Positions 9,240 through 18,305 of a stretch of 64,000 bases of DNA are shown piece by piece (position 1 is the stretch's first letter; each line of letters begins with the position of its first letter). The stretch spans positions 31,009-95,008 of the forward strand of contig PCWG01000035.1 of the NCBI GenBank assembly GCA_002787235.1, written 5' to 3'. Both the position numbers and the translations under genes were made by a program. The stretch comes from Nitrospinae bacterium CG11_big_fil_rev_8_21_14_0_20_45_15 (GTDB taxonomy: Bacteria; Nitrospinota; Nitrospinia; Nitrospinales; VA-1). Under the pieces are notes generated by a model. The model did no database searches. It was not told the DNA's origin and worked only from the letters and a program-made list of their open reading frames with translations.

Positions 9240-9836
9240 GTGGCCAGCGTCGAATATTTGATCAAACAGTTTCTAACACCCGATAAAAAAATTCTTAATT
9301 TGAGTAATCAAAAGTTGGGCGATAAAGGAGCGATTGCTATCGCTAATTCTAAGGTTTTGAGTAAACTCAAACGCTTGAGTTTGCCCAATAACAGTATCAG
9401 CGATGAAGGAATACTGGCTATTGCCGAGTCCGAATATTTCAAAAACCTCACCGAACTCGACATCTACGGAAACTTGATTGGAGACGACGGCGTCAAAGCC
9501 ATTGCCGCATCCCCATATTTTAAAAAGCTGAACAAACTGTCCCTGTACAGCAATCTCGTTGAAGATGACGGTGCCATCGCTATTGCAGAATCAACCACTT
9601 TGATAAAATTAAAACATCTCTTTTTGACAGGCAACCGGATAAGGCGAGAAGGCGTCGAAGCACTTCGAGCGGCAAAATGCCGATCCCGATTGTGTCATCT
9701 TCATCTGGATGAAATTGAAGATTTCATTTACGAAGATGATATCGATGACGATGATGACGAGATCGCCATCACAAGCCTTGAGGATCTGAAAAGAATCAAA
9801 GAAAAAATGGCTGAAAGAAAAATTAAAAATGCCTGA
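9240..9836 (+). CDS. Leucine-rich repeat protein (RI/GALA-like) with acidic C-terminal tract
   Basis: About five 27-aa repeats L..L.L..N.I.D.G..AIA.S; EDDIDDDDDE tract. Confidence 0.8.
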   Translation: MASVEYLIKQFLTPDKKILNLSNQKLGDKGAIAIANSKVLSKLKRLSLPNNSISDEGILAIAESEYFKNLTELDIYGNLIGDDGVKAIAASPYFKKLNKLSLYSNLVEDDGAIAIAESTTLIKLKHLFLTGNRIRREGVEALRAAKCRSRLCHLHLDEIEDFIYEDDIDDDDDEIAITSLEDLKRIKEKMAERKIKNA

Positions 9837-10407
9837 CGTTTTCGTCCCAACATTCCGCAAGAAATCATTCGCTATCTTATTAGCAATACTTCTTTGCGCG
9901 TTTCTTGGATCGATCTCTCATGCTCAAACTTTTCATAAAACAGCACCTGTCGATTATGCAGAGCTTTTTAAAAAGAACTTGAAAAAAGGTGGGCAATATT
10001 TAAATTTGAACGGGCAGAAAATCGGCGACGATGGCATTGCCGCTCTGGTCAAAAATCCTCTCATTCAAAATCTTGTTAAAATAGACTTGCGCTACAACGG
10101 CATCTCCACCGAGGGTGCCCGTATGCTTGCGCAAGCATCCTTTCCAAAACTGAAAGAACTGATTCTCAGACACAATATTTTAGGTGATGAGGGTGCAGAA
10201 GCGATCGCACTGTCAGAAGGCTTTCCAAAGCTTGAAGCCTTGCAATTGGGTTGGGCGGAAGTGCGCGACCGGGGGGCACTTGCATTTATAGACCGCAAAA
10301 TCACTGCGCTGGAGAAGCTGGATTTGCGTGGAAACTTTCTCGCAGACAGCACGAAGGACACTCTCAATAAAAAACTTTCCCACTTGAAGTCTTTAAAACT
10401 CTACTGA
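9829..10407 (+). CDS. Exported leucine-rich repeat protein
   Basis: Signal peptide (SHA-Q), same LRR consensus; overlaps upstream gene by 8 nt. Confidence 0.8.
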   Translation: MPDVFVPTFRKKSFAILLAILLCAFLGSISHAQTFHKTAPVDYAELFKKNLKKGGQYLNLNGQKIGDDGIAALVKNPLIQNLVKIDLRYNGISTEGARMLAQASFPKLKELILRHNILGDEGAEAIALSEGFPKLEALQLGWAEVRDRGALAFIDRKITALEKLDLRGNFLADSTKDTLNKKLSHLKSLKLY

Positions 10408-10497: not shown

Positions 10498-11487
10498 TCA
10501 GGAATCGATTTTATTTTTTGAGTTCAATGTGCTCTGGATATTGTTGAATACTGAAAGTGCCTGAGCTACCATCGACCCGGCATCACCCGTATTTGCAGGA
10601 AGCAAGATGGTGTTTGTTTCCTTTGCCAATTTTGAAAATGCCGAAATGTACTGTTCGGCCAATCTCAACGCGACCGCCTTTTCACCCCCTGTTTTTTGAA
10701 CAGACGCAGCAACCATTTCAATACCATCAGCAGTCGCACGGGCAACAGTTAGAATAGCCTCGGCTTCTCCTTTTGCCCTGTTTATTTGATCCGTCATAGC
10801 CGCTTCTGATTTTAAAACCACTTCTTGTTTGTAACCTTCTGCAATATTGATCTGCGATTGTCTTTGCCCCTCTGACTTCAATACCTCGGCCCTTTTTTGC
10901 CTTTCCGCCGCAACTTGAAGCTCCATTGCCTGTCGAACATTGTCAGGGGGTGTTATGTCTTTGATCTCATAGCGCAAGCACTGAATGCCCCATGCAACAG
11001 AAGCTTCATTAATACTCTGAACAATATTGACATTTAGCATATCCCGTTCCAGAAAGGTTCTATCGAGAGTGATTTTTCCTAATTCTGACCTCATGGTGGT
11101 TTGTGCCATTTGGGAAATAGCGTACCGGGCATCAGCCACACCATAGGAAGCCTGTTTGGGATCGGTAATTTTAAAGTATAGAATGCCGTCAATAATCAAG
11201 GTGACATTATCATTCGTGATGGCACTTTGGCTGGGAATATCTACCGCTGTTTCCTTAAGAGAATGCTTATAAGCGACACTGTCGAGATAAGGAATGATAA
11301 AATTCAGACCAGGAATCAAAACTTCGTTAAACTTACCCAATCTCTCAATGACCCATGCCTGCTGTTGAGGGACAAGCCTGACCCCTTTTGTAACCGTTAG
11401 GAAGATAAAAAATGCAACAACAAGATAGAAGGTAGATATCGAATCCATATCTTTAATGGCCTCAAGTAGAAAGTATATAATGTCCAT
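10498..11487 (-). CDS. SPFH/stomatin-like membrane protein (QmcA/paraslipin type)
   Basis: VIERLGKF...PGLNFIIP, QSAITNDNV, AQTTMRSELG, AERQKRA..SEG; alternative start ATG 11448. Confidence 0.92.
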   Translation of the reverse strand: MDIIYFLLEAIKDMDSISTFYLVVAFFIFLTVTKGVRLVPQQQAWVIERLGKFNEVLIPGLNFIIPYLDSVAYKHSLKETAVDIPSQSAITNDNVTLIIDGILYFKITDPKQASYGVADARYAISQMAQTTMRSELGKITLDRTFLERDMLNVNIVQSINEASVAWGIQCLRYEIKDITPPDNVRQAMELQVAAERQKRAEVLKSEGQRQSQINIAEGYKQEVVLKSEAAMTDQINRAKGEAEAILTVARATADGIEMVAASVQKTGGEKAVALRLAEQYISAFSKLAKETNTILLPANTGDAGSMVAQALSVFNNIQSTLNSKNKIDS

Positions 11488-11960
11488 TATTTTTGAGATT
11501 TTTCTTCCACAATCAAAATTCCCTTGCAGACTTCCCTTATAACGACCTCTTCTCCAACTTCAATAATTAGATTATCATCGCCCTCTGAGTGAAGTTCACA
11601 CTTCATTATTGCTCCCGACCATTTCACTTCGCCGGATTTCCCCTTTTTCAAGGCAACTCCATAAACAATCGCGGTACTACCCACAATATCGTCAAACCCG
11701 GAATCTTTCACTTCAATAAATTTCTTTAAAGGCTTCCACAAACAAATGGCCCATGCACCGGTTGAAAGGAAGAACAATATAAACTGAGAGCTTGCAGTGT
11801 CAATCCATCCCGTTAACAAAACCCCTCCAACTGTGACGGCACCCAGGCCCGCAAACACCAAACCAATCCCTGGAATAAAAAAAACTTCAAAAATAATGAG
11901 GAAAACACCAAAGGCTAGCCAGATTGAGCTTATTGGAAAATCGAAAGTCAAAGGATTCAT
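11487..11960 (-). CDS. Short NfeD-family protein (YbbJ-like)
   Basis: N-terminal TM helices (W...G..L..E..IPG), C-terminal OB fold (GEVKWSG); TAATG overlap with SPFH gene. Confidence 0.85.
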   Translation of the reverse strand: MNPLTFDFPISSIWLAFGVFLIIFEVFFIPGIGLVFAGLGAVTVGGVLLTGWIDTASSQFILFFLSTGAWAICLWKPLKKFIEVKDSGFDDIVGSTAIVYGVALKKGKSGEVKWSGAIMKCELHSEGDDNLIIEVGEEVVIREVCKGILIVEEKSQK

Positions 11961-12173: not shown

Positions 12174-13739
12174 CTAATTTTTTGAAATGTTTTCGAATTC
12201 CTCAATGCGTTCCATAAGTCGATGCATCTTTTTGTCCAGGGTCGTAATATGGCGACCGATCTCGTCGATCTCTTTTCTTTCCTTGGATAAATAAACCGTC
12301 CGGCATTTTTCCAAATGTTGCCCGATATGTTCGATCATATCGTGCACCTCTGTGCTTTCAAGCGACAGGTCCTCTGCCGTTTCCTGAAGCTCGATCATCG
12401 TTTCTTCAACCTCTTCCTGATTGGATAAGAGTAATTTCTTTTTACGCCCTCGGTTTCTTTGATAAAGAATCCAAAATCCTGAAAAAACAAGACCCAGTAA
12501 ACCCAGAGTGGCAAGATCAACCAACAATACAAAATAGGAACCAAAAAAACGTCCGGTATGAATTTCTGTGATCAGTTTGACCAAATCCATTTTGCGATCT
12601 TCTGACGCAAGTTTTTCACTGTTAGTTTCCAGCTCAGGCACACGCCAGGTTTTACCTTCATCAGAAGAAACGATCAATCCCTGGTCACTTGCCAACAATA
12701 AAACCGAATGGTTTACCTCCCCAAGATAAAGCAAATCCCCGATTTTAATCGGAGCATTTAACTCATCTTTGACATCGCTCAAAGAGATCTCTTTCCATTC
12801 ATCACCCCCATTTTTCGTTTGAAAAATCTGATCTATTGAAGCTACGATCAAATGAGAAATATTTTTTTCAGACGATTGTATGAGATGAACCGACTCAATA
12901 TCGTTGTTTCGATCACGAACCCATGATCTGCCACCATTGAAAGATTTATATAATCCTTCTTGAGTCCCCGCATAAAAAAATTCGGGTTCTGCGGAAAGTG
13001 AAATCAAAGAATGTGGAATGGGCAACCGATCTTCCCAGACATTTTCCCAATCCGATTCTTCATTTTTTCTATAAACCCCCTGATTTGTCAGTAAATATAC
13101 GGTATCCAGATCGACTGAGGAAAATACAACTTGATGAATGGTTGGTGGAGAATCGGAATTTTTTCCTGCAAAAGAGAGTTTCCAGCTTTCACCCCCATCG
13201 TCGCTTGAATAAAGCCCCCCATTGGTCACTGCGTAGACAATGTCAGGGTCCTTTTGGTGAACTGCCAGGTGACTTACAACGGGATGAGCCAGGCCGCTCG
13301 CGACATCGAACCAGTCACTCCAATGCTCGCCGCCATCTTCCGATTTGAAAATTCCCTGCGGAGAACCCGCATAAACAATGTCCGGCATTTGAGGAGACAA
13401 AGCAAGGGCGCGGATGTCTTGAGAGAACAAACCTTCTTTAAGATGCGTCCATGTTTTGCCCCGATCGACCGATCGAAACAAACCGTGACGGGCACCCACG
13501 AATAATTTTGTTCCCTCTGGCGTTCCCGCAAGTGCTTGAACTTGTCTTTTACCAGATTCAATTTGAAAATATTTATCAGGAAGAAATGCGCCATCCACCT
13601 CTTTGTGATTGAGACCCAGCTCATCGTAATGCATGAGCAATACACCTGTAACAGATAAAATCACCAGGAAGAAAGCACAAACCACACCCACCCAACGGTG
13701 TAAAAACCGTGAATTTTTAAACAAGGAGCGCACGTTCAA
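12174..13739 (-). CDS. PepSY-associated TM protein with periplasmic BNR/Asp-box beta-propeller and His-rich cytoplasmic tail
   Basis: LHRWVG...SVTG N-terminal helix and [10 protein letters not shown]-terminal helix; repeated S.D.G..W boxes ([39 protein letters not shown]). Confidence 0.78.
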
Positions 13740-15859
13740 ACCAATCCCTTATTTCCTTCCGTCGATACATTCAGCCGAGTCAAGCGTTCGAACTCGCTGG
13801 ACAATTGGTCTTCAACGGAGTGGACGTGGTTATACAGCTCATGAACTTTCTCATCGATCTCCTTCAAATGCTCTGATAATTCTTTGAGATCCTGATCTTT
13901 GGTGTCCTTTAAAAACACTTCACATCGTTTCGCGTGTTGCGAAATATGAGCGACCAGATCGTGAACGATAGCGATGTCTTGTTGAATCTTCCCAGCTTCT
14001 GCATGCAATTGTTTGTTTTCCACTTCGGGCTTGAACACAAAGGTATAAAGAAGTGCGAGGATATAAGCCAGAGCCAGAACCATTTGACCTGAGAAAGTCT
14101 CCCATGAAGGGTACATACCCAACCAGGAAATCTCTGGAGCAAAATCAGCCGCCGTCAAAGACAACTGCTCACCCATTTGCAACTCATGCAATCCTTTTCC
14201 CATGAACACGAAAGCCATGAAATACAGAAAAACACTGGTCACCGCAAAGAACCATTTGATAGGAATTTTCATACCGGCTTTGGAGATCAGGTAGTAAATA
14301 CCTGCAAGAATTAAACTTCCCACAAGAAATCCTGGAATGATTCCAGCCGTCCCCGGTCCCGCATACAAATAAAGAGCTTTGTAAAAAAGAACAGTCTCAA
14401 ATCCTTCTCGGTAGACTGATAAAAAGGCCACCATGCCCAGCGTGAGCAGACTTCCCTCTGACACCGCTTGTCGCATTTTCCCAGAAATATAACTTTGCCA
14501 TTTCGCCGCTTCTATTTTTGTCACCAGCCAATAACTGACCCAAAACAAGGCGACAACCGCGACAAGCATGATCCAGCCTTCCAGCAATTCCTGGCTGACT
14601 CGACTGATTTTAAGCACTTCGTGAAGAACATAAGCAGTGATAAAACTCGCCACAATACCAATGCCGGCCCCATAATAAATTGATTTTACCTTATCTTCAT
14701 TGCGGGATTTTGTTAGAAAAGTTATCAGTGCCGCGATGATAAGAATCGCCTCAAAACCTTCACGCACGATGATGGATAACGATTGCAGGAAAAGCCCGAC
14801 AAACCCAATATTCTCTACCAGAACGTCGCTCGCCTGAGTCAAATCCTCATGTATATTCTTATGAATGCCTTCGACCAGATCCTGCGGGGCCTTGCGTTTG
14901 ATTTCCGCACGATATCGGCTGAAAGAGGATTCCAGTCGCAGACCGAGTTCCTTGCGTTTGTTGACCAGCCCACCCTCAATCGATTCGTAGACCATGTAAG
15001 CGTCGAATGCCATCTCCGACGCCGTATCTGCATCACCTTCCTTGAATAGTTGCAAACTTTGATCTAGCAGAGTGCGTGTCTCAGCAATTGTGTCCAATGC
15101 GTTTTTATCGCCAGAAGACGCTTCCGCCACTTTCGCAACGTCAGGCAAAGGAAGCTGAACATCTGCATTAGAAAATGAACGAATGTAATAAGTCACATCC
15201 CATATTTCCGCTTCCGTCAAGAACTCCGCCCAGGCAACCATTGCGGTATTCGCAATGCCAACGTTGATGACCTGGAAATTATCGTAAGGTCGCGTATCCG
15301 CATTGCCCGTAAACTTGGGATCGGACAAATCGGTGGGAGGCGGTGTGAGAGTAGCCGCAAGTGGACCGTTGCCCTTGCCTTCGAGACCATGACACAATAC
15401 ACATCGGCTTTGATAAATCAGCTTGCCATTGTCCAAATTGACCGCTTGAGCCGGGGTAAATTTGATCTCAACTTGAAACTGTTTCTGAAGATTTTCGTTG
15501 ATCGCGTTGATTTCCGCCCGAACTTTTCCAGGATCTATTTTCGTTCGACTGCTTTCCTCCAACGCATCAAACGCCGCTATCAACGCCGACGATTCAGCTC
15601 CCGGATGTTTCGCAGCCAGCGATTTGAAACGAGTCGAGGCCTGTCCTAAAAAAATAAGACTTTCCTCATATTCCGCTGAATTTATAATTTTGCCGTCCGC
15701 AATACCCTCGTGATATTCCTTGGCCGCGATATTCAACATCATGACTATTTTTTTAACCTTCATTTCCACCTCTGCCGTCGAAGCAGAAGACAAAACAGGG
15801 TGACCGAGCGAAAGGAAGATTAAAAATAATAAGGATAAAGCAGACTTCAATGAATTCAT
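13736..15859 (-). CDS. Cytochrome c-FTR1 family iron permease (EfeU/PbrT-like) with His-rich C-terminal tail
   Basis: Signal peptide; CVLCH heme c motif; two REGFE motifs ([15 protein letters not shown]); GLHELQ. Confidence 0.9.
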
Positions 15860-15927
15860 AAGTTTAGGTTTCCTGAAAGCTTGAAAAAGTGTCGTAAAAT
15901 GTGCTGGCTACACATTATAAATAAAAA

Positions 15928-15942
15928 TGATAATTATTATCA
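15928..15942. promoter_or_regulatory. Fur box
   Basis: TGATAAT-T-ATTATCA, a perfect 7-1-7 Fur palindrome about 70 nt upstream of the FTR1 start. Confidence 0.85.
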
Positions 15943-16138
15943 ATAAAAATTAAAGCAACAAATGGCGTTTTTACTCACTTACTATAAAGGATTCAAAAAT
16001 TATTGCCCCCTGAGTGCCCTTTTACTTTCCATAAATTGAGTGGGCCTCAAAATTTTTCTTTATTCTAAAAATCCACTATTTGCAACAAATCTCAGGCAGT
16101 CCGACAATCACCAAGCGTTCAAAAATCAACCTGCAGAT

Positions 16139-16999
16139 TCATCGTATCCTTGAAAAAAGAGGAGAGTTTTTATTCGCAAATAGATAATTTCTTCTCCTTA
16201 AAGGGAAACTTAGCCCCTTCAATGGACTCAAAGAGTCCTTTTTAAATTCATAAACGCTATACCCTTTCGCCGCAAAAAACTCATCTACACCTCTCACCAT
16301 ACTTTCACTAGAGTCCTTAAGTTCAATCATAATCAGTGGAAGATGCTTTTGAATCAGTGCCTCTCCCCCTTTAATAACATCAAATTGCAAACCCTCCACA
16401 TCAATTTTCATAAATACGGGGGGGGGCAGGATTTCCAGGAAATTATCCATCTTATCCGTTTCAATTTTCTCGACTTTATCGTATCCATCAATTTTTAATA
16501 GCGACGCCGTCCCTTGCCCAATTTCCATATTTTGAAAATATAATTCGGCAATCCCTTTCTTTTCTCCCAATCCCTTTTGCACCAATTCAACGTTATCAAA
16601 GTGGTTTAATTCTATATTTTCACGCAAAAATTTCATCGTAAAAGAACTCGGCTCAAAAGAGACGACTTTTCCAAGCGGCCCGACTGATTGGGCAAAAAAA
16701 CATGTGTAGAATCCGATATTTCCTCCAATGTCCCAGCAAACGTCTCCCGGTCTCAGAAGCCTTGAAATGTTATTTATCTCGTAGCGTTCATCATGACTTC
16801 CGTAAAAATAATAGTGTTGATGCTCGGGATTTTTAAGACAAACTTTTAGTTTGAATTTATGCTTTGTTGTGAAGGTAACAAAGGAATCATCCGGCAAGAC
16901 CATTCGTCTTGTCAAATTCAACAAACCCGCCTTTCCATCAGTGATTGGGGAGTACTGCAAATAAAATCTAACGATCCCGTTCAATATTTTTTTTAACAT
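16139..16999 (-). CDS. FkbM-family SAM-dependent methyltransferase
   Basis: DIGGNIG, SFEP, MKIDVEG motifs. Confidence 0.88.
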   Translation of the reverse strand: MLKKILNGIVRFYLQYSPITDGKAGLLNLTRRMVLPDDSFVTFTTKHKFKLKVCLKNPEHQHYYFYGSHDERYEINNISRLLRPGDVCWDIGGNIGFYTCFFAQSVGPLGKVVSFEPSSFTMKFLRENIELNHFDNVELVQKGLGEKKGIAELYFQNMEIGQGTASLLKIDGYDKVEKIETDKMDNFLEILPPPVFMKIDVEGLQFDVIKGGEALIQKHLPLIMIELKDSSESMVRGVDEFFAAKGYSVYEFKKDSLSPLKGLSFPLRRRNYLFANKNSPLFSRIR

Positions 17000-17145
17000 T
17001 ATAGAAAGCCATCCTTGATTTGATTTAAAAAGCGATCAGGCCGAAGTCGTTCAATATTATCAGGATCGCGTTTCGGCAATCGCCCTTTTAAATTCGCATA
17101 ACGACGTCGTGCGACTCATGTCAGGTTTGGAAAAATTTGAGACCG

Positions 17146-17850
17146 TTAGGGGCTGAACATATAGCCTTTTTCTCGGATGGTAAGAATACGGCGTGGTTTT
17201 TGTGGGTTTTTTTCGAAATACTTTCTCAATTTGGCAATGAAATTGTCCACCGTCCGTGTCTCGGTTTTGGGATCATAGCCCCACACACGTTCGAGCAATT
17301 CCTCCCGAGCCACAACCTCCCCTTTATTGGAAACCAATAGTTTCATGACCATTGTTTCCTTGGCCGTCAGAAAAAATTCGCCATCTTTCCCACGCGCCCG
17401 CCCTGCCCCGAAATTGATCCACATATCGTCGAAATGGAAAATTTCCTGGTCGTGCACCGGCTCCTTGTACCATTCCAAACGACGAAGGATGCCCTTGACA
17501 CGCAACAAAAGTTCAGGAAGATGGAAGGGTTTTGTCATATAGTCATCCGCCCCTGCTTCCAGACCCTGCTCGCGATCTTCATCGGTAGACTTGGCGGACA
17601 ACATCAGAATAGGAAATCGTATGTTCGTTTTGCGAATGCGTTTGGCAACTTCCATGCCACCAACTTTTGGAAGCATGAGGTCTAGAATCACCAGATCAAA
17701 ATCTTCTTTGGCCAGAAGATCCAAAGCTTCCTGACCATCTCCTGCAAGAGCGGTCACATAACCTTCCTGCTCAAGATTGAATTTAAGGCCTCGCGCCAAA
17801 TGCGTTTCGTCTTCGACCAAAAGAATGCGCTTTCCCTGAGTTGTGTTCAA
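17146..17850 (-). CDS. OmpR/PhoB-family response regulator
   Basis: ILLVEDE, LDLMLP, GADDYMTKPF, RTVDNFI.KLRK; TTG start at 17850 behind AAGGAG (ORF track extends to 17916). Confidence 0.9.
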   Translation of the reverse strand: MNTTQGKRILLVEDETHLARGLKFNLEQEGYVTALAGDGQEALDLLAKEDFDLVILDLMLPKVGGMEVAKRIRKTNIRFPILMLSAKSTDEDREQGLEAGADDYMTKPFHLPELLLRVKGILRRLEWYKEPVHDQEIFHFDDMWINFGAGRARGKDGEFFLTAKETMVMKLLVSNKGEVVAREELLERVWGYDPKTETRTVDNFIAKLRKYFEKNPQKPRRILTIREKGYMFSP

Positions 17851-18305
17851 AATCGGATCACTCCTTCGACTCCGGGGCAACCGCCCCGCCAACTGCTGAT
17901 TAAAAAATGTTTCCAAAATTTCGAGGTATCAAACTAAAATCCTCCCAGCACACTCACACTCAATGGCCGATAACACCTGACCCTCAGGCAAAATCAAGCC
18001 TCTAGCGCGATCGGTAAACAGTTTATTGCTACCTATCAATCGATCTATGATCTCAAATGATTTTATAAAATCACCTAAGATTCTACTCCCATTAAAACTT
18101 TTTCCCAAATGTCTTTTAAGCTTGATCTGCACAGACTTAAGGATATTCCAAAAGGGTTGAAATAACGCCGATCCGGAAAAACCAAGCACCGTTTTTTAAT
18201 GGCAGGAAAGAATACCCTATCTGACAAGTAAGAGGCAGGCGAATGCTGGACTGGATCAAGATGGTTGATATTGCTCGAATTGTTTTATTAAAAGGTTACA
18301 ACTTA

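Follow-up and report, generated by a model that had tools for sequence, protein, structure and literature searches.

Two adjacent genes for iron-uptake membrane proteins of Nitrospinae bacterium CG11_big_fil_rev_8_21_14_0_20_45_15, which we take to be a marine nitrite-oxidising bacterium, end in copies of one His/Cys-rich domain. Both genes lie on the minus strand of a 64,000-nucleotide stretch of contig PCWG01000035.1 (positions 31,009 to 95,008; hereafter the window, in whose numbering coordinates are given). One encodes P0004, an FTR1/EfeU-type permease with a fused cytochrome c domain, and the other P0003, a PepSY_TM protein with a periplasmic beta-propeller. The two host families are known; what is new is the conserved and apparently undescribed domain that they share, in a clearly iron-regulated context. 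In the favoured reading, to which a probability of about 0.45 is given as a whole, the tail is a metal-binding hairpin with two sites, and the tails of the two proteins most likely pack together within a Fur-controlled cassette.

FTR1/EfeU permeases and PepSY_TM reductases are widespread, and for both, little is understood of how they come together with partner proteins or of whether post-translational control exists. A compact, strongly conserved and apparently unannotated module on both is therefore a candidate for a domain, new and cytoplasmic, that binds or senses metal. Natural deletion variants of the system exist, both as tail-less and as partner-less orthologues. Its reach is limited, since beyond Nitrospinota the module is restricted to a few rare lineages from metagenomes.

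The similarity of the tails had been pointed out in a preliminary description, and its coordinates, both 44-residue segments, their 14 identities and the nine potential ligands among these were reproduced; the segments are exact in the minus-strand translation, and stops interrupt the plus strand. They align without gaps (identical residues V, H, D, H, I, Q, H, C, E, H, D, K, H and L of the 44), and the potential ligands comprise 5 His, 1 Cys, 2 Asp and 1 Glu. None of 200,000 composition-preserving shuffles reached 14 identities or the observed score (98 with BLOSUM62 and no gaps); the runner-up among the 44-residue windows of either protein scored 15 or less. Whole-protein BLASTP of P0004 against P0003 returned E 3e-8 over 53 ungapped residues and, outside the tails, no high-scoring segment pair better than E 0.98; the remainder of the two proteins is therefore regarded as non-homologous, as had been stated. 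When the organism's own 3.37-Mb genome was searched in six frames, the sole match of each tail besides itself was its counterpart (E 8.4e-7 and 5.5e-7), and an hhalign comparison of 21 FTR1-type with 20 PepSY-type tails gave a probability of 97% (E 8.5e-11) over 59 ungapped columns. The two tails are homologous copies of one domain.

A chance or compositional resemblance between two coiled coils could be argued from the heptad background, as nothing beyond coiled-coil noise (GCN4 constructs, laminin) comes up when Pfam and the PDB are searched with the tails. Its probability is practically negligible: BLASTP, the genome search, the profile comparison and the shuffles contradict it, and the same eight polar positions are near-invariant in every architecture in which the module occurs. 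A recent duplication within the operon was also considered and rejected, since no other pair of module groups is as dissimilar as the two tail types (27% identity). The groups stand at roughly equal distances from one another (25-37% identity), and the FTR1 and PepSY types are conserved at 82% and 73% within type. By sequence, the tails belong to an old module family and are not the product of a recent local duplication.

Host proteins, topology and predicted fold

Permeases of the yeast Ftr1p type have two REGxE motifs in transmembrane (TM) helices and seven TM helices in all, with the N-terminus outside and the C-terminus inside. P0004 has two REGFE motifs and a C-terminus predicted to be inside, and its PF03239 score is 89.7 bits against a curated cut-off of 25.3. 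Matches to TIGR00145 and to the NCBIfam EfeU model are significant, yet below the equivalog cut-offs, and the TM helix that carries the second REGFE scores below the hydropathy threshold used. By its hidden Markov model (HMM) match, motifs and seven predicted TM helices, P0004 belongs with the FTR1/EfeU permeases (yeast Ftr1p, E. coli EfeU, Bordetella/Brucella FtrC), which it also resembles in having a periplasmic redox partner, here the fused cytochrome c (PF00034, E 4.4e-9; PF13442, E 6.8e-9). It differs in the tail, which is rare (52 matches, some of them noise, among 1.84 billion representative proteins). Tail-less cytochrome c-FTR1 orthologues in two Nitrospinota lineages stop after TM7, and to our knowledge characterised members such as EfeU are short and have no such tail. 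The cytochrome c domain of P0004 is flanked (residues ~30-135 and ~245-345) by helical repeats of the form 'EY..(A/G)(I/V).DG.I......EY.E...F', which also occur in the long N-terminal extensions of other tailed FTR1 proteins (P0035, P0036).

P0003 begins with a PepSY_TM helix. A periplasmic beta-propeller of BNR/Sortilin/Ycf48-like type comes next, then another PepSY_TM-like helix, and the tail makes up the last ~70 residues. The earlier assignment to the PepSY-TM proteins holds for the family (PF03929, 46.9 against a curated cut-off of 28.8; PF16357, 35.7 against 27), but the protein is not a plain member, having two TM helices and a propeller. With only two hydrophobic segments, it departs from the FoxB type, in which four or more TM helices hold two b haems by way of four conserved His. 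The ends of its TM helices retain the histidine motifs HRW/HKW, LMH and IHTGR, and because these are kept on only two helices, P0003 probably has to dimerise to bind haem. It resembles the haem-dependent PepSY_TM reductases (FoxB, FpvG, VciB, CrpH) in passing the HMMs, in its His motifs and in its position in an iron-uptake gene cluster, and differs from them in having two rather than at least four TM helices, a BNR-type propeller instead of PepSY domains, and a cytoplasmic tail. FoxB is described, in the accessible part of its report, as a four-TM bundle with two haems (10.1101/2021.01.28.428567), and the members modelled in the portion seen of a further study all have at least four TM segments (PMC13038864). 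PepSY-like proteins have been linked to iron reduction in the available sections of another survey (Meheust et al. 2021, PMC8238504).

A c-type cytochrome domain must be periplasmic. Downstream of it, P0004 has a basic loop (526-536), a loop free of Lys and Arg (558-590) and a last TM helix at 589-613. P0003 begins with a basic N-terminus (4 Lys/Arg, no Asp/Glu), followed by a TM helix (17-35), the propeller, a second TM helix (403-421) and the run RNRGRKKK. Because hydropathy, the positive-inside rule and the periplasmic location of cytochrome c and propeller agree, both tails are predicted to be cytoplasmic, and hence to lie on the same side of the membrane, as previously supposed.

Module positions are numbered from P0004 residue 620. 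The ligand positions are occupied in P0004 by H633, A637 (where Glu is replaced), H638, H642, C646, E660, H664, D669 and H673, and in P0003 by H466, E470, H471, H475, C479, E493, H497, D502 and H506. The Ala of P0004 (13949-13951) stands at module position 18, where at least 90% of tails have Glu, and is unique among 21 aligned FTR1 tails. Conservation was tabulated over 134 non-identical instances of all architectures, obtained by aligning every match from all searches to the module HMM and omitting P0043, P0047, P0049, P0052, P0053, P0055 and P0056 (repeat or coiled-coil noise) and the chimeric fragment P0044. The values were 97% for H14, 91% for E18, 95% for H19, 99% for H23, 90% for C27, 78% for E41, 100% for H45, 95% for D50, 72% for K52 and 96% for H54, so the His and Cys positions are kept in orthologues at 90-100%. 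In 20 related Nitrospinota genomes, the pattern H-x4-H-x3-H-x3-C was present in 20/20 FTR1 tails and 19/20 PepSY tails, the one failure (G030) carrying H19Q and H54Q.

The heptad pattern (hydrophobic residues at 13, 17, 20, 24, 27, 31 and at 39, 42, 46, 49, 53, 56, 60, 63, 67) is interrupted where indels of the core module fall (positions 30-37, with one deletion at 39); Pro and Gly peak at position 33, and in proteins with two tandem modules the second has a conserved Pro in the loop region. These features favour a cytoplasmic helix-loop-helix, or antiparallel hairpin, as had been proposed. The hairpin would consist of helix 1, a short loop at positions 32-37 and a longer helix 2. The ligand pairs 14+54, 18+50, 23+45 and 27+41 each sum to 68 and are thus mirrored about the loop, with H19 as an extra. 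In heptad terms H14/E18 and D50/H54 fall at e/b, H23/C27 at g/d and E41/H45 at c/g. In antiparallel coiled coils e faces e' and g faces g', and this rule predicts one site on each face of the hairpin. The loop-distal site would comprise 3 His, 1 Glu and 1 Asp, and the loop-proximal site 2 His, 1 Cys and 1 Glu. Fe(II) or Zn(II) would be the most likely metal.

Correlated losses suggest the same division into two sites. E18K, H19Q, D50G and H54Q occur together in P0030, H14Q, E18D, H19L, D50H and H54N in P0039, and H19Q and H54Q in P0022 (G030), and in each case H23, C27 and H45 are retained. Conversely, C27 and E41 were lost together, with the other cluster retained, in the small PepSY_TM proteins of family f9 and in P0038 (G042). 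The losses come from few, non-independent lineages and are to be read as a pattern and not as a statistic. From these patterns we infer that the tail probably binds metal.

The tail apparently represents an undescribed domain, in line with the earlier expectation that no existing family would cover it. No Pfam model reached its cut-off on the 41 tails scanned, the only sub-threshold matches being to coiled-coil families; NCBIfam gave nothing on the tails of P0004 and P0003, and sequence searches of the PDB gave only GCN4-type and other coiled-coil noise. Searches of the literature on FTR1, PepSY and Nitrospina iron permeases, supplements aside, brought up no description of the tail. Hemerythrin/HHE domains (PF01814) share the ligand inventory (5 His, 1 Glu, 1 Asp) and the HxxxE, HxxxH and HxxxxD spacings on helices. 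However, they have four helices where the module is predicted to have two, and in the module a single helix carries the motifs stacked on two of its faces. A hemerythrin-like origin was rejected, as hhalign against 12 Nitrospinota hemerythrin domains gave a probability of 0.5%, and none of the five PF01814 sites in the organism's own genome lies at the tails. Cytoplasmic metal domains of transporters include the C-terminal domain of CDF/YiiP, the C-terminal HCH motif of Ctr1 and the His-rich loops of ZIP and CDF proteins. The module resembles these in concept, as a cytoplasmic His/Cys/carboxylate site placed where it could sense or receive the transported ion, but has no sequence relation to them (no Pfam match), is predicted to be a hairpin, and is common to a permease, its partner and soluble enzymes.

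Distribution and coupling to the partner gene

Searched with the tail profile, 1.84 billion representative proteins yielded 52 matches at E<=1e-3, 20 of them at E<=1e-10; seven of the 52 are repeat or coiled-coil noise and about 45 look genuine. The module was found on cytochrome c-FTR1 proteins, on PepSY_TM proteins with a propeller, on short stand-alone proteins, on FTR1 proteins with other periplasmic domains (P0028, P0035, P0036, P0038, P0054; P0036 is a fusion with P19 Iron_transport), on propeller-less PepSY_TM proteins of 209-232 residues, and on 19 soluble proteins in which two tandem modules precede a transglutaminase-like core. The members of this tandem family (P0020, P0021 and P0057-P0073; alignment A4) are ~390 residues long, and each of their modules has the full His/Cys ladder. 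The best explanation of this range is an autonomous module, placed by the predicted topology at the cytoplasmic end of iron-uptake membrane proteins. Where the tandem proteins carry source names, these are a Eubacterium and a Thermoplasmata archaeon. An atlas look-up of P0021 returned neighbours of the transglutaminase core only, none on the module; a metagenome scan with P0028 gave no match, and one with the tandem family gave a single 1.7-kb contig.

Within the phylum Nitrospinota, the module occurs in 80/120 genomes. At the level of the order there are 72 module-bearing genomes, of which 55 have two or more matches, corresponding to both tails, and 17 have one. The second match lies mostly ~1.6 kb downstream on the same strand. 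The profile therefore recurs on both partners in syntenic operons, which the preliminary description had put forward as a check. All 17 single matches are of FTR1 type, several of them at contig ends, and in none of the 72 genomes was the PepSY gene found without a tailed FTR1. In three genomes the PepSY partner looks damaged: its tail is split over two frames in G034 (L054 3638-5382), parts of the gene lie far apart in G003 (L048, L049), and only an 85-residue open frame is left in G084 (G084:C1:280117-280308). These cases could be decay or assembly errors.

Five genomes without the module (G008, G015, G106, G029, G038; 91-96% complete) have cytochrome c-FTR1 orthologues that stop directly after TM7, and none of the five has a PepSY gene. 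In a quick maximum-likelihood tree of the permease core (support from the Shimodaira-Hasegawa-like approximate likelihood ratio test only; L032 left out as incomplete in sequence), the tail-less proteins form two separate clades within the tailed ones, starred in the tree; the tailed proteins around one of these clades are from its own genus and linked to PepSY. The tail thus appears to have been lost twice, both times in genomes without PepSY. In the same tree, tailed FTR1 proteins without a partner arise at least three times.

Relatives of the PepSY partner are also found outside this arrangement. All four of the small PepSY_TM proteins read from family f9 are tailed, and at the single f9 locus inspected the gene adjoins genes for an FMN-binding protein and a porin-like protein. 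L050 1995-3219 of G114, in a sister order, encodes a tailed, propeller-less PepSY_TM protein of 209 residues in which Cys27 and Glu41 are replaced, and its gene comes after genes for an FMN-binding-domain lipoprotein-like protein and a porin-like protein. This arrangement matches the flavinylation-associated PepSY-like clusters described in the part seen of Meheust et al. (2021; PMC8238504).

The cassette has a perfect Fur-box palindrome at its promoter, found with a 7-1-7 consensus that we take to be that of the Fur box. Three matches with two mismatches or fewer lie in the window against 0.36 expected, and the TGATAATnATTATCA site is the only perfect copy in the 3.37-Mb genome, where a control with the reversed pattern gave none. 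The predicted box extends into the -35 hexamer of the best sigma-70-like promoter, which precedes the FTR1 gene, although sigma-70-like sites in the region are in total no more numerous than in shuffled sequence. A candidate box (two mismatches or fewer) lies directly upstream of the FTR1 gene in 22/27 related loci, and two of the five loci without one end at a contig edge. The pattern places the cassette in the predicted Fur/iron regulon, and the iron-uptake context given in the preliminary description is thereby supported.

The two genes are also joined at their boundary. The TTG start of the PepSY gene overlaps the TGA stop of the FTR1 gene, and TTGA or GTGA overlaps of this kind occur in 17/20 loci, which suggests translational coupling. 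An AAGGG Shine-Dalgarno-like run lies within the last FTR1 codons (together with the overlap, 13736-13751) and may explain the conserved FTR1 C-terminus '..KGL.'.

Possible functions of the tails

The module stands on FTR1 permeases and on PepSY_TM electron-transfer proteins, and in Nitrospinales on both products of the cassette. In the favoured reading, two hairpins would lie side by side to give an up-down-up-down four-helix bundle, which would tether the two-TM PepSY/propeller subunit to the permease; assembly or activity of the pair could depend on metal occupancy in the cytoplasm. Such pairing of an FTR1 tail with a PepSY tail is plausible. It is argued for by the tandem proteins, which share the topology of two anchored hairpins side by side, by the phyletic and gene coupling of the two partners, and by the opposite net charges of the loop plus helix 2, which average about -4.3 (acidic) in FTR1 tails and about +1.3 (slightly basic) in PepSY tails. 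The tandem proteins, the joint losses and the stop/start overlap therefore lend indirect support to the earlier proposal that two modules work as a pair.

However, several observations weigh against the favoured reading. The FTR1 tail is conserved in five genomes (G051, G024, G081, G068, G070; 94-97% complete) in which no PepSY/propeller gene was found beside the FTR1 gene or elsewhere, so that it would have a role independent of PepSY; in two of them (G081 and G068) it carries C27S. In genera g8 and g17 the PepSY tails have lost several ligands and the adjoining FTR1 tail is intact, and tailed small PepSY_TM proteins occur in f9, where an FTR1 query found no match in three of the five genomes searched (these three being 78-89% complete). 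The same three findings speak against the obligate metal-bridged heterodimer of the preliminary description, which is not upheld. In addition, because P0003 has two TM helices where FoxB has four, PepSY homodimers are suggested, in which two PepSY tails would already be together. The compared genomes are kin, so co-occurrence counts overstate independence, and only two tail-loss events are inferred. The invariance of H14, H19, I20, H23, C27, H45, K52 and H54 in the 41-row alignment A1 is in part a result of selection, as A1 was built with a regular expression that required H14, H19, H23 and C27. The hairpin fold, the metal sites and the contact between tails are all deduced from sequence patterns.

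In the strongest competing reading the metal-binding hairpin is retained, but FTR1 and PepSY tails do not touch, and each would act on its own host in cis regulation or sensing, metal hand-off or homo-oligomerisation. For example, it could dimerise the two-TM PepSY protein and so create a four-helix haem-binding TM bundle. The conserved partner-less FTR1 tails, the f9 proteins in genomes where FTR1 was not found and the ligand-poor PepSY tails beside intact FTR1 tails all fit this explanation, as do the tails on FTR1 proteins with other periplasmic domains, and the two TM helices of P0003 against at least four in FoxB- and CrpH-type proteins (from the parts of the sources cited above that were available). 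It is also consistent with tail types that are only 27% identical, yet 82% and 73% conserved within type, as expected of old, separately constrained lineages. It is nevertheless rather doubtful, since the PepSY gene is never without a tailed FTR1 in the 55 genomes that have both and both inferred tail losses fell in PepSY-less genomes. The tandem proteins show that two non-identical modules can work in one unit, and the coupled stop/start and the complementary net charges of the tails point in the same direction.

The model of the preliminary description goes further than the favoured packing of tails: metal would bridge the two hairpins in trans, and cytoplasmic iron would assemble or gate a permease/reductase complex. 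Each helix does carry ligand pairs on both flanks (e/b and g/c heptad positions), one of which would face the other hairpin in a four-helix bundle, and Cys27 occupies a d position in the core. Among genomes in which the state of the partner is known, replacements of Cys27 are limited to those with a single module (C27S in G081 and G068, C27A in G042, C27K/R in f9); it is kept in all paired Nitrospinales tails, and among tandem modules the only exception is the fragment P0025. The predicted Fur box also puts the cassette in an iron regulon. Against this model, loss of E18, H19, D50 and H54 from the g8 and g17 PepSY tails should leave their FTR1 counterparts orphaned, yet these stay conserved, and FTR1 ligands are likewise conserved in genomes with no PepSY at all. 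Bridging of this kind is accordingly judged improbable.

Iron sensing or gating by the tails is speculative, although the analogy with cytoplasmic metal domains on other transporters is a reasonable one. A version in which a hetero four-helix bundle beneath the membrane holds Fe(II) or a centre that uses the Cys27 of both modules (for example a Cys/His-bridged cluster), reports cytoplasmic iron and switches the permease and its PepSY partner on or off is considered unlikely. If it were true, it would be the first post-translational iron-feedback module for FTR1-type permeases, and tandem copies of this sensor would serve a second time in the control of soluble transglutaminase-like enzymes. 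A redox role is highly improbable. Here the His/Cys ladder would hold a redox cofactor rather than a simple ion, either a haem with two His ligands or, where two modules meet, an Fe-S or iron centre bound through Cys and His. Such a cofactor could carry the haem electron path of PepSY_TM on into the cytoplasm, or return Fe(III) to the reduced state at the permease exit. Both hosts are linked to haem or electron transfer through the cytochrome c domain and PepSY_TM, each of two modules would offer an H23-x3-C27 motif, and many PepSY-like proteins carry cytoplasmic electron-input domains, according to the portion seen of Meheust et al. (2021; PMC8238504). However, the His residues occupy flanking e, g, b and c positions beside Glu and Asp and are not set in a hydrophobic pocket, the module carries much charge and a single Cys, it also occurs on soluble transglutaminase-like proteins with no evident redox partner, and FTR1 itself is no redox protein.

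Feature coordinates and flanking genes

Table 1. Features of the cassette, its promoter and its surroundings, in window coordinates
Feature	Position	Strand	Basis
P0004 gene: signal peptide, cytochrome c, FTR1/EfeU-type permease, C-terminal tail (coding part 13739-15859, 707 residues)	13736..15859, including stop	-	translation, family HMMs
P0004 cytochrome c domain, periplasmic and mono-haem (CxxCH motif CVLCH), residues ~141-228	15176..15439	-	PF00034, PF13442
P0004 FTR1 permease core, residues ~336-613, two REGFE motifs, 7 predicted TM helices	14021..14854	-	Pfam, hydropathy
P0004 tail, predicted cytoplasmic, residues 620-707 (88 residues)	13739..14002	-	BLASTP, alignment
P0004 core module, residues 632-675	13835-13966	-	alignment to P0003 tail
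P0003 gene: 2-TM PepSY_TM protein, periplasmic beta-propeller, C-terminal tail (coding part 12177-13739, 521 residues)	12174..13739, including stop	-	translation, family HMMs
P0003 tail, predicted cytoplasmic, residues 453-521	12177..12383	-	BLASTP, alignment
P0003 core module, residues 465-508	12216-12347	-	alignment to P0004 tail
TTGA, PepSY start (TTG) overlapping FTR1 stop (TGA)	13736..13739	-	sequence, 20 loci
Predicted Fur box, perfect 7-1-7 palindrome TGATAATnATTATCA	15928..15942	.	0 mismatches to 7-1-7 consensus
Best sigma-70-like promoter: TTGATA, 18 nt, TATAAT; 11/12 matches	15914..15943	-	consensus match only
NfeD-like membrane protein and SPFH/stomatin-like protein, stop/start overlap, directly downstream of the cassette	10498-11960	-	
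Two adjacent leucine-rich-repeat (ribonuclease-inhibitor-like) proteins, the second with signal peptide	9240-10407	+	
FkbM-like methyltransferase and OmpR-type response regulator reading frames, upstream of the cassette	16139-17916	-	by eye from translations

The flanking genes were considered as further parts of the system and rejected, since none of the NfeD/SPFH, FkbM methyltransferase, response regulator and leucine-rich-repeat genes is syntenic in 26/27 related loci. The NfeD-like and SPFH genes are absent from the corresponding position in 27/27 loci and are therefore placed outside the iron cassette. The one relative with any synteny is the nearest (L025), where it covers the leucine-rich-repeat genes and the response regulator alone. 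Because the flanks are not syntenic beyond this relative, the conserved unit is taken to be the two-gene cassette with its predicted Fur box.

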